Positions 16,628 to 50,308 of a DNA stretch of 64,000 bases are shown piece by piece; the first letter of the stretch is position 1, and every line of letters begins with the position of its first letter. The stretch is from contig CAWJKE010000016.1 of assembly GCA_963843455.1 (NCBI GenBank), positions 159,506 through 223,505 of the forward strand, given 5' to 3'. The stretch comes from an uncultured Actinomycetota bacterium. GTDB taxonomy: Bacteria; Actinomycetota; Thermoleophilia; RBG-16-64-13. Under the pieces are notes generated by a model. It was not told the DNA's origin. It ran no database searches and saw nothing but the letters and a program-made list of their open reading frames with translations. The position numbers and the translations under genes are program-made.

Positions 16628-17626
16628 TCATTCAGGCGCGGGCCCCTGCGGGCTTTCGGCCGGCTGAGTCGCTTGAGGCGGTGACGAGCGGCGGCGGACA
16701 AGGAGCAGCACCACCAACACCACCAAGGCAACGATGACGATGCCGCCTATGATGACGCCGATGATGGCCGCCCAGTGGTAAGCGGTGCTCTCTGCAAACA
16801 TCTGCCGGGCCTCGGTGAACCCGATGTTCCAGGCAAGTGTGTTGCCGCTCACCTCGTCGGCGTTGTTGTCGCCGATGGTGCCGGGCAGCGTGACACGGTT
16901 CTCGATGATCAGCACCTCACCCGGAAGGTCTACCCCCAGTCCGAGCGCGGCACCACTGAGCTTGGAGATCGCTCCGGCGGCATCGGCCGTGGCGGAGAAT
17001 CGGGTCTTGGTGCTGAACAGCCCATCGTCCTGGGTAAGGGTGACTCCGCCCACGCCCACCGCCGAAGCGAGATTGCTCGAGGCGAGTATCTCCTGCAGTT
17101 CCTGCGGGTTGGCGAAGGGCTGCGTCAGCGCCACCCATTTAGTGCCATCAGCGTCGGTGCCGCGCTCCACCTGCCATTCCCCCGGGATCTTGCTCAGGAT
17201 GGTGTCAAAGAGCTCGTCCACGCTCCCCGGGATCAGCCCGGACGCTTGGCCCAAGTCTCCCAGGCCTCCGCCCAGATCGCCGAGACCCTCCAGAGCTCCG
17301 CCCAGATCGCTAAGACCCCCCAGGCCTCCGCCTATCTTGCCCAAGCCTTGCAGCACCTTGCCCACGCCTCCCAAGGCTTTGCCTACGTCATCCAGCCCAA
17401 GGGCTTTTCGCAGACCGTCGAATAACGAACCCGAGTCCTTGGGTTTTTCGGGAATGGCCGCGAGCGCATCGTTCAAGGCCTTGTCGGCGGCAATACGTAC
17501 AGACACGGTCCCCGAGCCATCGGTTTCGACCTTAGTATCGAGCCCGACGCCGACAGTGCATCCGGTGAGGACGACCAGGCTCGTGAGCAGAAGGATGAGC
17601 AGCACCACGGGCAGCGCGTAGGACAT
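16628..17626 (-). CDS. lipoprotein with Gly/Leu-rich GLGxLG repeats, C-terminal transmembrane helix and Pro-rich tail
   Basis: Start MSYALPVVLLILLLTSLVVLTGC with a GAGGAG RBS. The internal repeats are encoded by near-tandem DNA repeats around 17220-17400. Confidence 0.6.
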   Translation of the reverse strand: MSYALPVVLLILLLTSLVVLTGCTVGVGLDTKVETDGSGTVSVRIAADKALNDALAAIPEKPKDSGSLFDGLRKALGLDDVGKALGGVGKVLQGLGKIGGGLGGLSDLGGALEGLGDLGGGLGDLGQASGLIPGSVDELFDTILSKIPGEWQVERGTDADGTKWVALTQPFANPQELQEILASSNLASAVGVGGVTLTQDDGLFSTKTRFSATADAAGAISKLSGAALGLGVDLPGEVLIIENRVTLPGTIGDNNADEVSGNTLAWNIGFTEARQMFAESTAYHWAAIIGVIIGGIVIVALVVLVVLLLVRRRSSPPQATQPAESPQGPAPE

Positions 17627-17792
17627 ACTTCTCCTCGCCCTTCTCGTGCCCGGATCGGTCTTGCTTCCCCTCACAACGATTCCCCCTCTGACGACGGGTC
17701 TGTCTACGACGACGCACGCCCTATACCCCGGATGGGCCGCTGCCGGGCCTTGCCGGCCGGGGCGCTTACTCTACTCGATGACTCCGGCCGTC

Positions 17793-28394: not shown

Positions 28395-28427
28395 CCTACC
28401 CGGCCGCGAAGCCCTACCCGGCCGCGA
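28395..28427. repeat. tandem duplication (2 x CCTACCCGGCCGCGA) spanning the stop codon of the 28414..29058 gene, plus an overlapping hairpin CCCGGC-CGCGA-GCCGGG
   Basis: Seen directly. The duplicate copies the GCGGCCGGGTAG (AAG-stop) C-terminus. Confidence 0.5.
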
Positions 28428-29058
28428 GCCGGGCACCCATCTCAAACGCCCTTTGGCAGTCGATCGGAAACTGTTCGTCTCGCCTCTTGGTCCTGGCCTC
28501 TACGTCGAACATGGCCGCGTTCACGGCCGAGTAGTCCGCGAACTGGTAGTTCTCGTGCGAGGTGAGGACTTCTGTCGTGCCCTTGAGGATCCCCATGACG
28601 AGGGCGTGAAATTCGAATAGCACGTCGTACTTGACGGTCTTGACGAACTCCTCGGGACAGTTCATGGTGAAGATGAGGCCGCACGACACCTTCCCCGCGA
28701 AGGTCGAGACGCCGTACTCGTCGTAGGAAGCGCTGGGAAACAGCAGACGCTCTTGAAACGAGCGCATCTCTCCGGTCACATCGCCGAAGTAGATGGGTGA
28801 GCCCAGAAGGAGCACGTCGCTCTCAAGAACCCGCTCGAGCACCTCCCGCAGATCGTCGCGCATGGCGCAGAGCGAGCCGCAGGTGTTGCCTTTCCGCTTG
28901 CACGAGAAGCAACTGGTGCACCCCTGGTAGGTCAGGTCGTAGAGATGGACCAGTCTTGTCTGCGCCCCCACGCTTTCTGCACCCTCCAGGGCGTTCTTCA
29001 GCAGAGTGCCGGTGCTCCAGTCCTTTCGCGGACTGCCGTTCACTGCGATCACGTTCAT
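28414..29058 (-). CDS. iron-sulfur flavoprotein / NADPH-dependent FMN reductase-like (flavodoxin fold)
   Basis: N-terminus MNVIAVNGSPRK and a CTSCFSCK Cys cluster. 214 aa. Confidence 0.7.
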   Translation of the reverse strand: MNVIAVNGSPRKDWSTGTLLKNALEGAESVGAQTRLVHLYDLTYQGCTSCFSCKRKGNTCGSLCAMRDDLREVLERVLESDVLLLGSPIYFGDVTGEMRSFQERLLFPSASYDEYGVSTFAGKVSCGLIFTMNCPEEFVKTVKYDVLFEFHALVMGILKGTTEVLTSHENYQFADYSAVNAAMFDVEARTKRRDEQFPIDCQRAFEMGARLAAG

Positions 29059-29152
29059 GTTCGCTCCACTTGTCGGTCGTCGCTATGCACCCATGCTATC
29101 GCGCCGGATTCGATTCAGCCCGGAGTGGAGCGGTCCCGCATGCGGCAGGCGG

Positions 29153-29456
29153 CTATTCCCGCGTGACCTCGGCGGCCAGATCGTAAGCCCGGACACTGAC
29201 CCCATCCAGGAGTTCGCCGATCTTGGCTAGACGCTGCTTGAACCCCTCGCTCGCGCGCCACTCCTCGATGACCTGCGGCGTTGGGCCATTCGCCAAGGCT
29301 TATGAAATGCGTCGGGTCTTCTGTATCCCGGAACAGCCTGCCCCACCCTGGGGTGAAATCAGTGGTGCTCCAGCGGGCAAGCTCCCGCCAGGCATCCACG
29401 AACTCCTGCTCGTGACCCGGCTTCGCGTGCCAATCTCCGGACGAATAGACGGCCAT
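29153..29456 (-). pseudogene. antibiotic-biosynthesis-monooxygenase (ABM)-like small protein, +1 frame disruption near 29277
   Basis: MAVYSSGDWHAKPGHEQEFVDAWREL...FISLGEW sits in one frame with a GGAGGAGG ribosome-binding site. The C-terminus (PTPQVIEEWRASEGFKQRLAKIGELLDGVSV...) is in the +1 frame after CCC in GAATGGCCCAACGCC. Confidence 0.6.
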
Positions 29457-29591
29457 GATGTGCCTCCTCCAGCAGGTTGCTCGTTTCTCCTCCCTTACTT
29501 CCCGTAGAGGGGGCCGGATAACCGTCCGTCGGGCATCAAGATCGAACATGGTGTAGCATTATAACCGTACAAGCGATTATATGAGGCAGGC

Positions 29592-30731
29592 ATGAAGCGC
29601 CTTTCATTTCTTGACAGATACCTAACCCTCTGGATCTTCCTGGCCATGGCCATTGGGGTGGCGGCTGGTTACGTCTGGCCCCAGATCGGCAAAGCCATCC
29701 AGAGCGCCTCTATCGGCACTACTTCGATCCCCATAGCGATCGGCCTCATCGTCATGATGTACCCGCCGCTCGCTAAGGTGCACTACGAAGAACTGGGAGA
29801 CGTTTTCCGCAACACGAAGATCCTGGGGCTCTCTTTGGTACAGAACTGGGTCATCGGTCCCATCCTCATGTTCTTCCTCGCCGTCCTGCTCTTGTCCGAC
29901 AAGCCCGGGCTCATGCAGGGCGTGATCATGATCGGACTGGCCCGCTGTATCGCCATGGTCATCGTCTGGAACGAACTGGCCAAGGGCGACAGCGAGTACG
30001 CCGCTGGACTGGTGGCCTTCAACTCGGTGTTCCAGGTGCTCTTCTACTCGGTCTACGCCTACTTCTTCCTCACGGTTCTTCCCGGATGGCTCGGCCTGGA
30101 ACAGGCGACCGTGCACGTGAGCATGGCCCAGATCGCCCAGAGTGTGGCGATCTATCTAGGCATTCCGTTCGTCGCCGGGATCATCACCCGGTTCACCCTG
30201 CTGCGTTTCAAGAGCCGGGAGTGGTACGACCACGAGTTCATCCCCCGCATCAGCCCCATCACCCTGATCGCGCTCTTGTTCACCATCTTGGTGATGTTCT
30301 CGCTCAAGGGAAAGATCATCGTACAACTGCCGCTCGATGTGGTCCGGGTGGCTATTCCACTGCTCATCTACTTCGTCATCATGTTCTTCGTCAGCTTCTA
30401 CATGGGCAAGAGGGTGGGCGCCGATTACCGCAAAAGCACGACCCTGGCCTTCACCGCCGCGTCCAACAACTTCGAGCTGGCCATTGCAGTGGCCATATCC
30501 GTGTTTGGCCTTGCCTCGGCGCAGGCTTTCGCCGCGGTCATCGGTCCGTTGGTGGAAGTGCCGGTGATGATCGGGTTGGTTAATGTCGCCTTCTGGCTCC
30601 AGCGTCGCTATTGGCCGGCCAACGAGACTGATGCAGCGTCAGCCCTGGCAACAGTGGAGGGTCAGGATCTGGGCTGCCCGACCGTGATCGGCCGCCCGTT
30701 TCAAGGAGAGACCAAGGCGGGAGATACGTAG
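29592..30731 (+). CDS. acr3: arsenite efflux transporter ACR3
   Basis: 379 aa with ACR3/ArsB-family topology and conserved motifs ([30 protein letters not shown]). Confidence 0.9.
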
Positions 30732-30751
30732 GACCGAAGGAGGTGTTGGCG

Positions 30752-31474
30752 ATGGAGACCCTGGCGCTCTTCTCTGACGTGCACGGCAACCGCTTGGCCC
30801 TTGAGGCGGTTCTCGATGATCTCGAGGCCCGAGAGATCCCGACGGCCTACTGTCTGGGCGATCTGGTGGGCTATGGTCCCGATCCCAATGGAGTGATCGA
30901 CCTGCTGCGCAGCCGTGGGATCGAGAGCCTGCTCGGCAACTACGACGAAGGCGTCGGCTGGGAGACGGGCGATTGCGGCTGCTTCTTCCCGGACGCCGAG
31001 GCCCAACGGATCGGCGAGGCGTCTTACGCCTTCACGGTGGCCACAGTGACCGCCGAGAACAAGGCGCATTTGCGCACTCTCCCGCGGGAATTACACATCG
31101 AACTGGCTGGTAAGAAGGTCCACTTGGTGCACGGCAGTCCACGTCGCATCAACGAGTATCTGCTCCGCGATCGGGATGAACGAACCTATGTGCGGCTGGC
31201 GGAGGCCGAGTCGGATGATGTCCTCGCGTTTGGCCACACCCATGACCCGTGGTTCCGCTGGTACAAGGGCAGACTGTTCGTGAATGTGGGCTCGGTGGGG
31301 CGGCCAAAGGACGGCGATCCCCGAGCCATGTACGTCGTTCTCACGTCATCCGTAGGCGAGCCGGTGGATGTGGAGATCAGGAGGGTCGCGTACGACGTGG
31401 GCGCGGTCGCCGCGGCCATTTTGGGCGTCGGCCTGCCGGCGACGCTCGCCGAGGCGTTGAGGGGCGGCCACTGA
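30752..31474 (+). CDS. metallophosphoesterase (YfcE/MJ0936-like)
   Basis: Motifs DVHGN, GDLVGYGP and GHTH. AAGGAGG ribosome-binding site 9 nt upstream of the ATG at 30752. Confidence 0.75.
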   Translation: METLALFSDVHGNRLALEAVLDDLEAREIPTAYCLGDLVGYGPDPNGVIDLLRSRGIESLLGNYDEGVGWETGDCGCFFPDAEAQRIGEASYAFTVATVTAENKAHLRTLPRELHIELAGKKVHLVHGSPRRINEYLLRDRDERTYVRLAEAESDDVLAFGHTHDPWFRWYKGRLFVNVGSVGRPKDGDPRAMYVVLTSSVGEPVDVEIRRVAYDVGAVAAAILGVGLPATLAEALRGGH

Positions 31475-31491
31475 TCGGCCGGAAGTCGAAC

Positions 31492-32253
31492 ATGTCCATC
31501 CGTCTCGCAATCATCGCCGACTACGGGCCGGAGGACCCGTCGCGCCGGTCGGCGGAAAGGGCTCTCGCTCACGCGGCCGATGCCCTCAGTCTCGAGCTTG
31601 AGGTAGAGTGGTTACCTACCACCACGCTGGACAGAGACTCAAGCCGCGCCTCCTTGTCGGGATTCGACGGCATCTTCGCCCCCGGAGGCGACTACGAGAA
31701 CAAGGACGGCGGGTTGGCGGCGATCCGCTTCGCCCGAGAGGCGGGCTGGCCTTTCTTTGGCACCTGAGGAGGCTTTCAACATGCTCTGGTAGAGCATGCA
31801 CGCAATGTTCTGGGAGTACGCGACGCCGATCACGAAGAGACCGCGCCGCACGCGTCGACGCTCGTTATCACCCGGCTGGTATGCTCTCTTGGAGGCACGG
31901 AAGGGGTAACCTACGTGCTTCCGGGCACGCTCGCCTTCAAGGCGTATGGGGCTGACCGTTCTGTTGAGAAGTTCCTGTGCAACTACGGCCTGAACGAACG
32001 CTATCGCGATCTGATGTTCGCGGGCGACCTCAGGATCGCGGGCGAGGACGGCGAGGGCAACGTGAGGATCATCGAGCTTCAGTCGCACCCCTTCTTCGTG
32101 GCCACCCTGTTCGTCCCCCAGTTGTCCTCGGGACCCGGCAGGCCGCACCCGCTCGTCGTGGCCTTCCTGCGGGCCGCCAAGGCGTTCCGCGGCTCCCGAG
32201 GATCTGGCGGCGTCCTCACCACCGAGAGGACAGGCGATGGCCAAGCAAACTGA
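31492..32253 (+). CDS. CTP-synthase-like class I glutamine amidotransferase domain protein with in-frame TGA (31765..31767) at the catalytic-Cys position; candidate selenoprotein or nonsense-inactivated pseudo-enzyme
   Basis: A single reading frame 31492..32253 is interrupted only by TGA. PGGDYENKDGGLAAIRFAREAGWPFFGT*GGFQHALVEHARNV aligns to E. coli PyrG [44 protein letters not shown]. The C-terminus HPFFVA...HPLVVAFLRAA is conserved, but the catalytic His and Glu are replaced (FVPQL versus FHPEF). Confidence 0.55.
31780..31798 (+). promoter_or_regulatory. candidate bacterial SECIS-like stem-loop (CATGCTC-TGGTA-GAGCATG) starting 12 nt after the in-frame TGA
   Basis: Perfect 7-bp stem built from rare AT-ending codons (CAT GCT CTG GTA GAG CAT) in a high-GC gene. 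The loop contains GU. Confidence 0.4.
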
Positions 32254-32620
32254 CAGTCAGAACCCCTGGATCGGGCGGGAGCTATTCGACGCGCGCGGCC
32301 TGAAGATCGGCACGGTCAGTGGCCTTAGCCTTCCGCGCAGGAAGTTCGGCACCATTTGGCTGCTGGTGGAGACCGAGGCCGGTGATAAGGTGCCCGTGCC
32401 TCTCATCGGGATCCGCTCCTCGGGGGATCGTCTAGTGCTGCCGTACCCCAAGTCCTACGTAGAGAGCGGACCCACTGTGGCGCATGACGGGCCGCTCTCG
32501 CAGGCGGAGCTACGCCGGTTGGCCCTGCACTACGGCTTCGACGACCAACTGCCGGGCGCCGCCGGCTGCCACGGCTGCGGTCTCTGCCGGGCCGGGAGGC
32601 GAGCGGGGCGGCCTCGGTGA
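32237..32620 (+). CDS. PRC-barrel-like domain protein
   Basis: The ATG overlaps the preceding stop. N-terminal 90 aa look PRC-barrel-like, and the C-terminus is low-complexity. Confidence 0.45.
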   Translation: MAKQTDSQNPWIGRELFDARGLKIGTVSGLSLPRRKFGTIWLLVETEAGDKVPVPLIGIRSSGDRLVLPYPKSYVESGPTVAHDGPLSQAELRRLALHYGFDDQLPGAAGCHGCGLCRAGRRAGRPR

Positions 32621-32644
32621 CTCGCGCGAATCGGGGCTAGCTCG

Positions 32645-33985
32645 ATGGAACGCATCGACGTCATCGTTGTAGGCGCCGGACAGGCTGGCCTAGCCCTGAG
32701 TCACGAACTGAGCGCCGGCGGGGTGGAACACGTCGTGCTCGAGCGCGGCCGTGTGGGCGAGTCGTGGCGCCATCGCTATGACAGTTTCTGCTTGGTCACT
32801 CCTAACTGGACCGTGCGGTTGCCCGGCCACCCGTACCGCGGGCCGGACCCTGATGGCTTCATGGTGCGCGACGAGATCGTCGCCGACTTGGAAGAGTATG
32901 CCAGCGGTTTAGAGGCGCCGCTGCGTGAGGGGATCTTCGTGACCCGGGTGGAACCGCTACCCGAGGGCGGCTTTCTCGTTCGCACCCGGGCGGGGGATCT
33001 CAGCAGTCGCGCCGTGGTGCTGGCTACCGGTACCTTCCAGCGGCCCCATCGACCGGCGGTCGCCGAGACCTTGCCCCCCGGCCTGCCCCGGATCAACGTC
33101 GACGCATACCGCAACGAAGGCGCCCTCCCCCCTGGGAAGGTGCTTGTCGTCGGGAGCGGCCAGTCCGGAGCGCAGATCTGCGAAGAGCTGTGCCAGGCGG
33201 GGCGCGAAGTCGTCCTGGCCTGTGGCAAGGCGGCCTGGGTCCCGCGTCGTCTCGGGGGCCGGGACATCTTCTGGTGGCTTGACAAGGTGGGTTTCTTCGA
33301 CCAGACGCTGGAGAGCCTCCCCACCCCGGCCGCGCGCCTGATCCCCAATCCCATGGCAACCGGTCACGATGGCGGTCACGATCTGCACCTGCGTACGCTC
33401 AAGGCCATGGGGGTGACTCTTGCCGGGCACTTCCTGGGGACGGAGAACGGTCGGGCCCACTTCGCGCCGGACCTGCCGGAGAGCGCCGCCTGGGGAGATC
33501 AGCGCTACCGTGACCTCATGGGTCTGATGAAGCGCTTCGCCGCGGAGCAGGGAATCGATCCGCCGCCGATGTACGAGCCGGAACCCCTTGTCGACCGAGG
33601 GCCCGAATGGCTGGATCTCTCCGGCGTCGGCATCGTCATTTTCGCCGGCGGTTTCCGCCCGGGATACCTCTCCTGGCTGCCGCAGCCCCAGGCGTTCGAC
33701 GATCTCGGCTTTCCACACCAGCAAGACGGGGTCAGCACGGTCGTCCCCGGGCTATTCTTTGTGGGCGTCCATTTCATGCGCACGCGCAAGTCCTCGCTCC
33801 TCTTCGGGGTGGGCGACGACGCCGGTCTCGTCTCCGGTCGAATCGGCGACTTCCTCAGGAGCGGACCCCCGTCACAGGATGCACAAAGCTGTAGGGCAGC
33901 CGATACCCCGATGGATAGGGATGAAAATGCGGCGCCGGAGCGTCGGCGTCCGGCCGGTTCAGCATGCCCAGAAGGGGCACCTTGA
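32645..33985 (+). CDS. flavin-containing monooxygenase / FAD-NAD(P)-binding oxidoreductase (CzcO-like)
   Basis: Two dinucleotide-binding motifs (GAGQAG and GSGQSG). The C-terminal ~40 aa are low-complexity and overlap the convergent gene by 130 nt, so the true end may be earlier or frame-shifted. Confidence 0.7.
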   Translation: MERIDVIVVGAGQAGLALSHELSAGGVEHVVLERGRVGESWRHRYDSFCLVTPNWTVRLPGHPYRGPDPDGFMVRDEIVADLEEYASGLEAPLREGIFVTRVEPLPEGGFLVRTRAGDLSSRAVVLATGTFQRPHRPAVAETLPPGLPRINVDAYRNEGALPPGKVLVVGSGQSGAQICEELCQAGREVVLACGKAAWVPRRLGGRDIFWWLDKVGFFDQTLESLPTPAARLIPNPMATGHDGGHDLHLRTLKAMGVTLAGHFLGTENGRAHFAPDLPESAAWGDQRYRDLMGLMKRFAAEQGIDPPPMYEPEPLVDRGPEWLDLSGVGIVIFAGGFRPGYLSWLPQPQAFDDLGFPHQQDGVSTVVPGLFFVGVHFMRTRKSSLLFGVGDDAGLVSGRIGDFLRSGPPSQDAQSCRAADTPMDRDENAAPERRRPAGSACPEGAP

Positions 33986-47156: not shown

Positions 47157-48019
47157 TGGCCGGATTCGCCGAAGCCGATCTGACGCAGGGTCTGCGCGAG
47201 CTCGCACTCGAGCGGCTGGAGGTCGACCTGCTAGGTGTGGCCCCGGCCGAACGGCTTCAAGGGGCACCCGAAGGTGCGCGCGCCACGGACTACCTGCCCG
47301 GAGCCCGGTCTGTCGTGGTTCTGGCGGCGAAGATACCGGATGCCGTCATCGAGGTCGCTGGGCGTTACGACGATCCCGGCAAGACCCTCGGCCCCTACAT
47401 GTGGTACGGCTACCCGGTCATGAACTGGGACCTGTCGTCGGTGGCGAGCCGCGTGACCAAGTTCCTGGAGATCCATGGTTTCAAAGGATTGCCCTTCCCG
47501 CCCACCGGCCTCCTCTACAAGTTCGGGAACAGGGCCGACTTCTCCCATCGGCACGCGGCGGTGGCGGCCGGCCTCGGTGAGTTCGGGTGGAATGGCCTGC
47601 TGCTGACCCCCCAGTTCGGGGCGAGACAGCGGCTGGTCTCCATCGTCACCGACGCCCCTCTGGAGCCCTCCCCCATGTACGAGGGGCCTCCCCTGTGCCG
47701 CCCCGCTTCCTGCGGACGAGCGTGCGCCGACGCCTGCCCAACCGGGGCGATGACCGGAAGCGTTTCGGTCGAGATCGGCGGCAAGACGTTCGAGTACGCA
47801 TCGCTGCATCCGGTCAGATGCAAGTGGCCGTTTGCTGAGGAGGGCTTCCGACGGACCAGGGTGGCCATGCCGGAAGACCCGACGGAAGAGGACCTGCGGA
47901 CCGTGATGAGCTCGACGACCCCTCATCCGTTCGACGCTGCTCTGACTCAGTTCACCTTCGTCCCGCAGTGCGGAGCCTGCATCTTCTCGTGTCCGTCACC
48001 GCGCTTCGGTGAGGCCTAG
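47156..48019 (+). CDS. 4Fe-4S cluster-binding protein (QueG/RdhA-like Fe-S domain)
   Basis: ATG overlaps the hydrolase stop (GTGATGG). Cys motifs CRPASCGRACADACP and CGACIFSCP. The long ORF from 46598 is a spurious extension. Confidence 0.55.
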   Translation: MAGFAEADLTQGLRELALERLEVDLLGVAPAERLQGAPEGARATDYLPGARSVVVLAAKIPDAVIEVAGRYDDPGKTLGPYMWYGYPVMNWDLSSVASRVTKFLEIHGFKGLPFPPTGLLYKFGNRADFSHRHAAVAAGLGEFGWNGLLLTPQFGARQRLVSIVTDAPLEPSPMYEGPPLCRPASCGRACADACPTGAMTGSVSVEIGGKTFEYASLHPVRCKWPFAEEGFRRTRVAMPEDPTEEDLRTVMSSTTPHPFDAALTQFTFVPQCGACIFSCPSPRFGEA

Positions 48020-49128
48020 GCGAGCATCGCCTTCCAGGCTTGGAGCTTCTCGCGCCCCCAGCGGGCGCACACGGCCGGTTTGTTCGCTGCGACGAGCTTA
48101 TTGCATGCATCCTGGCAATCGCAGTGGACTATCTCGTCCTCCCGCCCCTCCAGTACCTTCGAGGGCCACTCCGGATCCGCCCAAAGCACGCGGGCCAATC
48201 CGATCAGATCGGCCTTGCCCTCGGCGATGATCTCCTCGGCCAGCCGCCCGGAGTCGATGTGCCCGGCGGTGATCACGGGAACGCCGACCGCGCTCTTCAC
48301 GGCCGCCGCCAGATCGACCATGTAGCCCGGCTGGGCGCTTCGCTCGGCCACCTGCGGCAGGCCGAAGGATTCGTACGTCCCGCCCATGACCGAAAGGTAC
48401 GCCACCCCGGCGGCTTCGAGCACCTGGGCGGCCCGGCACGACTCCTCGATCCCGAGTCCGCCGGGAAGCCATTCGTCGGCAAGAAAGCGGTAGCCGACGG
48501 GAAAACCCTTGACGGCCGCCTTGACCCCACTGATGACCTCCAACGGAAACCGGCAGCGATTCTCGAGAGAGCCTCCGTAGGCATCCTCCCGCCGGTTCGT
48601 CCAGGGCGAGATGAACTCGGCCAGAAGGTAGCCGGTGCCTCCGTGCAGTTCGACCATGTCGAAGCCCGCTCGCTTGACCCGCAGGGCACACTCGGCGAAC
48701 TGCTCGGCGATGTGCCGCATCTCGTCGGTGGTGAGCGCCCGAGGCGTGCGACCAAAGACCTCCACCGCCGAAGGCGCGACCGGCTGGGACGCCGCCCGGG
48801 CGAAGCGCCCCGCGTGATTGAGCTGGATGCCGGCGAGAGCCCCCTGCTGCTTGATGGTCTGAGCCAGACGCGCCAAGCCGTCCAGACATTCGTCGGTGTC
48901 GGCGCGGAGTTCTCTGACGGACCCACTCGCCCCCGGGTGATCGATGCTGGCGTTCTCGACGACCACCAGCGCGACCCCGCTTCGAGCCATGAGACGATAG
49001 TGGTCCAAGAGCGGCGCGTTCACCATGCCCTCTTCACCCGCGTAGCCCAGGAACAAGGCCGTCATGGTGAGCCTGTTCTTGAGCTTCAGCCCGCCGACCT
49101 CATAGGGGGAGAACAGATGATCGAACAT
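48016..49128 (-). CDS. NADH:flavin oxidoreductase (Old Yellow Enzyme family)
   Basis: 370 aa, intact, OYE TIM-barrel pattern. Confidence 0.85.
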   Translation of the reverse strand: MFDHLFSPYEVGGLKLKNRLTMTALFLGYAGEEGMVNAPLLDHYRLMARSGVALVVVENASIDHPGASGSVRELRADTDECLDGLARLAQTIKQQGALAGIQLNHAGRFARAASQPVAPSAVEVFGRTPRALTTDEMRHIAEQFAECALRVKRAGFDMVELHGGTGYLLAEFISPWTNRREDAYGGSLENRCRFPLEVISGVKAAVKGFPVGYRFLADEWLPGGLGIEESCRAAQVLEAAGVAYLSVMGGTYESFGLPQVAERSAQPGYMVDLAAAVKSAVGVPVITAGHIDSGRLAEEIIAEGKADLIGLARVLWADPEWPSKVLEGREDEIVHCDCQDACNKLVAANKPAVCARWGREKLQAWKAMLA

Positions 49129-49155
49129 GCCGGCTCCTTTCGTCTTGGCTGAGCC

Positions 49156-49930
49156 TCAGATTATGTGGCTGTCGGCGCAGATCCCGCCGTCTACCGCCAT
49201 TTTCTGCCCGGTGATGAAAGCCGACTCGTCGGAGGCCAGAAAGACGTAGAGCCCCACGCAGTCTTCCGGAGAGCCCTTTCGGTGGCCGAGTGGGGTCTCG
49301 CGCAGGATGCGATCGATCTGCTCCTGAGTCTCCGTCAGGCCGGCCGCGGCGACTATCTCGGTCTGGGTCACTCCCGGTTGCACCGCGTTCACCCGGATAT
49401 TGAGCTCGCCCAGCTCGGCCGCCGCCGTCCTAGTCATGGAGAGGATGGCGCCCTTGGTGGCGCCGTAGACGAAGCCCCCGTGCTGTCCGTGGTCGGCTGC
49501 GATCGAAGCAGTGTTGATGATCGACCCTCCCCCGGCAGCGACCATCGCCGGGATGGCGTGCTTGGTCCCGAAGAACGTCCCCTTCTGGTTCACCGAGGTG
49601 ACGAAGTCGAAATCCGCCTCCGTCAGCTCCTGGAGCGGCTTGGCGACCATGACGCCGGCATTGTTCACCATCACGTCCAAGCGGCCGAACGTGTCGACCG
49701 CGGTCGCAACAAGCCTCTTGACATCGTCTTCGCGGGAAACGTCGGCGGCCACATAGATCGCCTCCCCGCCGGCGGTCGTTATCGCTCGGGCAGTGGCTTC
49801 GCCCTGGCCGTCCGTTCGGCGATCGTTGACCACGACCCGGGCCCCTTCGGCGGCGAACGCTATCGCCACCGCCCGGCCGATGCCCGATCCGGCTCCCGTC
49901 ACGATCGCTACTTTTCCCTGTAATCTGGCC
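49156..49930 (-). CDS. SDR family oxidoreductase
   Basis: GTG start with a GGGAGGAAAG ribosome-binding site. TGAGSGIG cofactor motif and YxxxK. Confidence 0.8.
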
Positions 49931-50308
49931 ACTACTTTCCTCCCCCGCTCCGGCATACCTTGGCGGCACCAGCGCCCGCAGTCCCGCCGGCTCACGCATG
50001 TCCTACTGCATCATCGAGAGCCGCGCGTACCGTGTAACCGTGAGTGTCAAGTCCCGCCACCCATCTGTCAAGTCCGAACGTCCGGGGCACCACGGCGAGA
50101 CCTCCGATACCACCGTCGCGGACTCCAACCATCGACCATCGGATTAGGTGGATCCACACTTGAGGCCGGGGTCTCAGGCAGGGGACTGCCGGTTGGTCGC
50201 GAATAACGGGTCTAGCCACCGTGGCGGTCGATTTAGCCAAGGCCTTCTGCGGGCGTTTCTGCACGATTGCGAACAACGCTGACTGCGACAGAACGTGCTG
50301 ACGTTAGG

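Follow-up and report, generated by a model that had tools for sequence, protein, structure and literature searches.

Results

A frame with one internal TGA in a row of same-strand genes

The stretch of DNA that we analyzed (hereafter the window) is 64 kb long, with a GC content of 63% and a GC3 of about 0.78. Between positions 29592 and 33985 it carries a row of five frames, all on the forward strand: a gene for an ACR3 arsenite efflux protein (29592-30731), a gene for a Metallophos_2 phosphoesterase (30743-31474), the 253-codon frame that is our subject (31492-32253), a 127-aa ORF that matches no family (32237-32620), and a gene for a Pyr_redox_3 flavoprotein (32645-33985). The gaps along this row are 11, 17, -17, and 24 nt, so that the phosphoesterase gene stops 17 nt before the ATG of the 253-codon frame. 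An FMN reductase gene and an ORF with a weak ABM-domain match lie divergently upstream (28414-33985 region), and the flavoprotein shows sub-threshold matches to the MSMEG_0569 and ArsO families.

The 253-codon frame starts with ATG, ends with TGA (32251-32253), and contains a single internal stop codon, the TGA at 31765-31767, in the translated context FFGT*GGFQH. Alignment with cysteine-containing homologs and with TGA-bearing relatives places this codon in a nucleophile elbow, G-T-U-G-G-F-Q-H (residues 90-97), where it is predicted to encode selenocysteine (U92). The coding sequence that follows (31768-32250, residues 93-253) needs read-through to be translated.

The encoded protein is a standalone relative of the CTP synthase glutaminase domain

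For profile searches, we entered U92 as cysteine. The window protein scores 293.4 bits against NF004836, whose curated cut-off is 260 bits, with residues 3-229 aligned to positions 1-227 of the 228-position model, and it also matches the Pfam GATase family PF00117. Residues 3-228 align to positions 291-526 of TIGR00337, which is the glutaminase part of PyrG from end to end, and residues 2-230 align to positions 293-533 of PDB 3nva (E = 1.5e-31). These alignments bear out two claims of an earlier, sequence-only reading of this DNA: that the frame corresponds end to end to the PyrG glutaminase (GATase) domain, and that its sole interruption falls at the nucleophilic cysteine. The TGA aligns with Cys379, the nucleophile of E. 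coli CTP synthase (CTPS). The synthetase domain, which forms the N-terminal half of PyrG, is absent from the 253-codon gene, so the domain stands alone. AlphaFold models a cysteine-containing homolog that is 54% identical to the window protein (P0001) with a pLDDT of 94.8. This model closely resembles the CTPS glutaminase fold, and on that basis the family is predicted to have a class I glutamine amidotransferase fold, with the CTPS glutaminase domain as its closest match.

The TGA codon is conserved at the nucleophile position in about ten phyla

In 118 of 120 database homologs, the residue at the position of U92 is cysteine. The nearest relative found by protein search, P0041, is 79% identical over the half of the query that it covers. 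In the contig that encodes it (L001), the homologous codon is likewise TGA, and the hairpin after it is base-for-base identical to the one in the window, with flanks that differ synonymously. We scanned one genome per species with a degenerate pattern for G-T-TGA-G-G-F-Q-H, which matched at least 119 loci. At least 115 of these are true family members in which the homologous codon is TGA and the frame stays open for a further 137-165 codons; L001 and another locus, L244, also have TGA there. By record titles, the TGA forms among the matches listed come from Rokubacteria, Methylomirabilota, Chloroflexota, Acidimicrobiia, Thermoleophilia, Gaiellales, Acidobacteriota, Desulfobacterales and other "delta proteobacteria", Anaeromyxobacter, Dormibacterota, Bacillota, Planctomycetota, and Candidatus Entotheonella, in all about ten phyla. 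A crude neighbor-joining tree of the family requires at least 12 switches between selenocysteine (Sec) and cysteine (Cys) forms; Sec/Cys interchange is usual in selenoprotein families.

A predicted SECIS hairpin follows the TGA codon

Twelve nucleotides past the TGA lies the sequence CATGCTC TGGTA GAGCATG (31780-31798, forward strand), a predicted bacterial SECIS element. As the sequence-only reading had described, it forms a perfect 7-bp stem (31780-31786 paired with 31792-31798) around a 5-nt apical loop, UGGUA (31787-31791); if an optional eighth pair, U-A, formed, the loop would shrink to GGU. The 19-mer has a folding energy of -9.4 kcal/mol. The bacterial SECIS consensus, cited from a 2026 review of prokaryotic selenoproteomes, calls for a loop of 3-9 nt, a stem of 4-16 bp, a G among the first two loop nucleotides with G or U after it, a distance of 16-37 nt between UGA and loop, and an energy of -7.5 kcal/mol or lower. 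The window hairpin agrees with the four published criteria (loop UGGUA of 5 nt, stem of 7-8 bp, distance of 19 nt, -9.4 kcal/mol), and its spacing and shape are thus SECIS-like, as first proposed.

Taken alone, the hairpin is weak to modest evidence, and the decisive evidence comes from related genomes. In the window, 7 of 927 forward-strand TGA trinucleotides are followed by a perfect 7-bp hairpin with an early loop G at SECIS spacing, and there are 47 7-bp hairpins in the window overall. Folding the region past the TGA, which had been suggested as a check, gave no support: in single-sequence folding, a 71-nt region was not more stable than shuffled sequence (z = +0.67).

As a control set, we collected 120 loci from metagenomes that carry TGC or TGT within the same motif, and kept the 83 that were clean family members. 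The segment from +12 to +42 after the codon has a mean folding energy of -9.6 kcal/mol in 111 distinct Sec forms, compared with -5.4 kcal/mol in 82 Cys forms (Mann-Whitney p = 4e-21), with GC3 alike in both sets. Sec forms also fold more stably over this segment than do resampled synonymous versions of themselves. The proposed comparison of orthologs thus separated the two forms clearly: a stem of at least 6 contiguous base pairs is found at the same place in 82 of the 111 Sec forms listed and in 4 of the 82 Cys forms.

We aligned 54 sequences with the window type of hairpin. Of the cells in this alignment, 99.2% pair, and compensatory double changes occur at four of the seven base pairs of the stem; at the fourth pair, for example, G-C, G-U, and A-U are all seen. 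None of 500 shuffles reached these values of pairing and covariation, and RNAalifold independently yielded the identical helix. Third codon positions are almost invariant within the hairpin and free to vary outside it. The same peptide, QHALVEYA or QHALLEYA, is encoded as CAC-GCG-CTG-CTC/GTC-GAG-TAC in Cys forms and as CAT-GCT-CTG-GTA/TTA-GAG-TAT in Sec forms. The window hairpin is identical base for base not only in L001 but also in L118, despite diverged synonymous flanks. In other clades, a hairpin occupies the same location in a shifted register; in one of them, the loop is GUC or GGUCG, and there is again a GC/AU compensatory pair. The family hairpin comes in at least three registers: i+j = 48 (UGGUA/UGUUA), i+j = 50 (GUC/GGUCG), and a Rokubacteria type (GCGCGAUCGUCGAGUUCGCGC). 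Selection on RNA structure, which had been suspected from the window alone, is borne out by a hairpin that is kept and covaries in Sec forms and is missing from Cys forms.

The same reading had described the stem codons as rare in this genome. Among 24 window genes, GCT makes up 10% of its synonymous set, GTA 7%, GCA 7%, and CAT 30%. The description thus holds for GCT and GTA, and CAT is better called uncommon. The TGA-containing gene has only two CAT codons, both within the stem.

At the protein level, residue 100 (codon GTA, 31789-31791) lies in the apical loop of the hairpin. Of 104 Sec forms, 71 have Val (GUN) here and 28 have Leu, which in the window-type hairpin class is encoded by the rare codon UUA; of 191 Cys forms, 176 have Leu or Ile. 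Covariation between residues 98 and 102 (T with Y; A or V with H or Y) keeps the fourth base pair. From these patterns in the alignments, the protein sequence at residues 98, 100, and 102 appears to be shaped by the need for a SECIS element.

Compared with the consensus model of bSECISearch, the window element is similar in that its loop starts 20 nt past the UGA, is small, and has G then G/U at positions 2-3; a closable U-A pair flanks the loop, and the energy is below -7.5 kcal/mol. Like the E. coli fdhF/fdnG-type elements, it is a stem-loop inside the coding sequence directly 3' of the UGA. Its sequence is unrelated to that of the fdhF hairpin.

Selenocysteine decoding and its alternatives

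Together, these data make it very probable that 31492-32253 is a real selenoprotein gene of a CTPS-glutaminase-like family, with its UGA read as Sec92 by means of a SECIS hairpin. By analogy with established bacterial Sec decoding, the UGA at 31765-31767 would not be read as a stop during translation. The hairpin at 31780-31798 would act as a bacterial SECIS element that brings SelB-GTP and Sec-tRNA(Sec) to the ribosome, and selenocysteine would be inserted as residue 92.

We searched for the machinery that such decoding uses. Neither ARAGORN nor Rfam found a tRNA-Sec in the 64-kb window, where the only tRNAs are tRNA-Lys and tRNA-Glu, and there is none in the loci L001-L120. Likewise, tblastn with E. 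coli SelA, SelB, and SelD gave no match, either in the window or in the other loci that we retrieved. The lack of sel genes in the window is uninformative, because 64 kb samples a multi-megabase genome.

One alternative is that the gene is stranded: an ancestor was decoded with Sec, the machinery was then lost from this genome, and the TGA now stops translation after 91 residues of a newly dead gene. This account would fit the lack of visible Sec machinery in the window and the unusual G-D in place of a near-invariant S-P at residues 66-67 (see below). It could also accommodate dN/dS values of 0.3-0.5, which are not very low. The downstream frame of the window gene, however, is wholly intact over 161 codons and retains the family-invariant residues, and its hairpin matches those of L001 and L118 base for base while the synonymous sites around it have diverged. 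Since sel genes are not expected to turn up within 64 kb of a multi-megabase genome, their absence does not favor this account, and we give it only a slim chance.

Slimmer still is the chance that the gene is an ordinary pseudogene, in which TGC or TGT mutated to TGA by accident and the hairpin is a coincidental product of the conserved peptide H-A-L-V-E-H-A. A single base change is enough to turn either cysteine codon into TGA, 7-bp hairpins are not rare in the window, and the fold z-score is not significant. Against this, at least 115 species of many phyla share the TGA, and in every one the frame beyond it stays open; Cys forms encode the same peptide without the hairpin; and the stem shows compensatory changes. 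Selection past the TGA is purifying: dN/dS there is 0.40 against L118 and 0.28 against L001, and constraint is no weaker than before the TGA, a pattern unlike that of a gene silenced by a nonsense mutation. The conservation of the TGA, the absence of the hairpin from Cys forms, and the compensatory stem changes effectively refute a chance origin. With the TGA present in at least 115 genomes, an intact frame, and purifying selection, the suggestion that this might be a pseudo-enzyme gene silenced by a nonsense mutation is not supported.

A sequencing or assembly error, or UGA acting as a sense codon for Trp or Gly under an alternative code, is the least probable account and can be set aside: one public gene call (P0004) does render the homologous TGA as Trp, but independent assemblies have the same TGA and the same hairpin, about half of the well-supported window genes end in TGA as a normal stop, and homologs carry Cys at the site, not Trp or Gly.

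The family lacks the catalytic triad of CTP synthase

Aligned to 3nva and to E. coli PyrG, residues 206-210 of the predicted selenoprotein (L-F-V-P-Q; 32107-32121) replace the F-H-P-E triad motif of CTP synthase, with V208 and Q210 at the positions of E. coli CTPS His515 and Glu517. The replacement of the catalytic His and Glu had been noticed from the window sequence, and it is correct as described; it is not specific to this gene. None of the roughly 295 Sec and Cys members that we examined has His at position 208, where V, L, Q, or I is found instead, and position 210 holds Q in all but a minority of Cys forms, which have E. As judged from this alignment, the absence of the triad His and Glu characterizes the whole family and does not reflect decay of the window gene. 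In one Cys-form sub-branch (L122, L126, L128, L132, L134, L140, L147, L195, and others), T-L-F-Q-H-E-R replaces T-L-F-V-P-Q, which places a His one position past the canonical triad His site; these sequences come from metagenomes, some of them from human gut and food samples.

Other features of the CTP synthase active site are kept. The P-G-G/S turn (E. coli CTPS 350-352), which we take to be the oxyanion hole, is present, as are the elbow residue Gln96 (Gln383 in CTPS) and Glu116 (Glu403). Arg470 of CTPS, which presumably contacts the bound glutamine, is replaced by Asn164 in the window protein, and the whole family lacks that Arg. Four residues, His97, His114, Cys131, and Cys163, are invariant or nearly so in the family and unmatched in the aligned E. 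coli CTPS; Cys163 aligns adjacent to the Arg470 equivalent. Compared with the CTPS glutaminase domain (E. coli 287-545; PDB 3nva, 2vkt, 5n29), the window protein thus differs in having no synthetase domain, in pairing a Sec/Cys nucleophile with neither His515 nor Glu517, in having Asn164 for Arg470, and in the four added conserved residues of its family.

The window protein and L001 read A-P-G-G-D-Y where the family has A-P-G-S-P-Y, a change at G66-D67 (31687-31692) that adjoins the presumed oxyanion-hole turn. Pro67 is present in 100 of 104 Sec forms and in 190 of 191 Cys forms. By this sequence signature, the window protein belongs to a divergent sub-branch marked by G66-D67.

Because the triad residues are replaced, canonical triad glutaminase function is not expected. 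The Cys-His-Glu triad of class I glutamine amidotransferases is represented here by its nucleophile only, as Sec, and we found neither a fused domain nor a conserved neighboring synthase that could accept ammonia. With the triad His and Glu and the Arg470 equivalent missing, the protein is probably not a classical ammonia-channeling glutaminase. The alignments make it more likely that the family is a Cys/Sec-nucleophile or redox enzyme that works without the classical triad. In such an enzyme, the low pKa of the selenol, or His97, His114, Cys131, or Cys163, would stand in for the missing general base.

A bolder version of this idea, to which we give a little less than an even chance, is that glutaminase activity is absent from the family altogether and that the CTP synthase glutaminase fold has been reused for other chemistry, with residue 92 acting together with Cys163, Cys131, His97, and His114 in place of a His-Glu pair. 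A selenenylsulfide redox cycle and covalent catalysis on a non-glutamine substrate are possible candidate chemistries.

Gene neighborhoods and annotation of the family

We clustered the ORFs that lie within 5 kb of the family gene at 115 Sec and 83 Cys loci. At most 13 of the Sec loci, and 17 of the 198 loci overall, had any one neighbor cluster in common. As far as gene order can tell, the row around the window gene is not common to its relatives and gives no reliable functional hint. We considered an arsenic island, prompted by the ACR3 gene and the weak ArsO match of the flavoprotein, and dropped it: no ArsR was found, the flavoprotein falls far short of the ArsO cut-off, and the FMN reductase has only weak matches of the MsuE/SsuE type.

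Several related loci illustrate how such genes are handled by gene callers. On L001, the part past the TGA is called as a separate 142-aa gene, P0041. Within L001 9018-10429, the frame before the TGA is open for just 68 codons, and an upstream Acetyltransf_1 gene is called across that region in another frame. The N-terminal part of this locus probably contains an indel or an assembly error, or else that copy is decaying. At L244 758-800 (JGI contig Ga0589500_07555592), the gene call P0004 reads GTWGGFQH where the DNA has TGA. The hairpin there, CATGCTC TGGTA GAGTATG, is of the same class as that in the window, and going by its DNA, P0004 represents a Sec form to which the wrong code was applied in translation.

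Elsewhere in the window, two reverse-strand ORFs at 48016-50010 share one frame and are parted by a single TGA (49156-49158); from their translations, we take them to be a short-chain dehydrogenase-like and an Old-Yellow-Enzyme-like protein. We rejected a second selenoprotein at this site, since an ATG nine codons past the stop gives the second ORF a start of its own and the pair looks like adjacent genes. This was the only other long TGA-joined frame in the window, and no other selenoprotein gene was found there. We also noted a 30-nt tandem repeat at 17259-17332 (2.5 copies, 81% matches) inside a reverse-strand ORF (16628-17770).

Discussion

The sequence-only reading had raised the possibility of a Sec-dependent enzyme not described before. 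Sec decoding is strongly supported by our analysis, and a claim of novelty does not stand, since the family already appears in the catalogs of 2025 and 2026. Xiao and Zhang (2025) predicted a "glutamine amidotransferase (COG0504, PyrG)" selenoprotein in Desulfosediminicola ganghwensis and reported that TGA- and Cys-containing homologs exist elsewhere. The 2026 review tabulates NF004836 as a selenoprotein with the motif GxUxG, and credits deep-Sep (Xiao and Zhang, 2025) for the prediction. The window motif, G-T-U-G-G, fits this pattern, and two homologs (P0079 and P0086) already bear the NF004836 (seleno)protein name in public sources. Our literature search on PRK06186/NF004836 returned no paper beyond the 2026 review, and no experimental report of selenium incorporation for any family member.

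The window gene is therefore a further member of a selenoprotein family catalogued in 2025, and not a genetic element of a new kind. It shares with the NF004836/deep-Sep COG0504 selenoprotein a full-length match above the model cut-off, GxUxG with U at the nucleophile position, a standalone domain some 230-250 aa long, LF[VLQ]PQ where CTP synthase has FHPE, and a family that comprises both Sec and Cys forms. It differs from that selenoprotein in that it is likely actinobacterial (its closest relative, L118, is labeled uncultured Actinomycetes), has G66-D67 for the near-invariant S-P, and sits in an ACR3/phosphoesterase/flavoprotein row of its own.

For annotation, the locus is best recorded as a single selenoprotein of 253 residues; with standard gene callers, it ends up as two fragments or is left out. 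The Sec form is widespread in soil and sediment lineages, including Rokubacteria, Acidobacteriota, Chloroflexota, Actinomycetota, and Desulfobacterales, and a widespread Sec/Cys family that lacks the triad is a reasonable target for enzymology.
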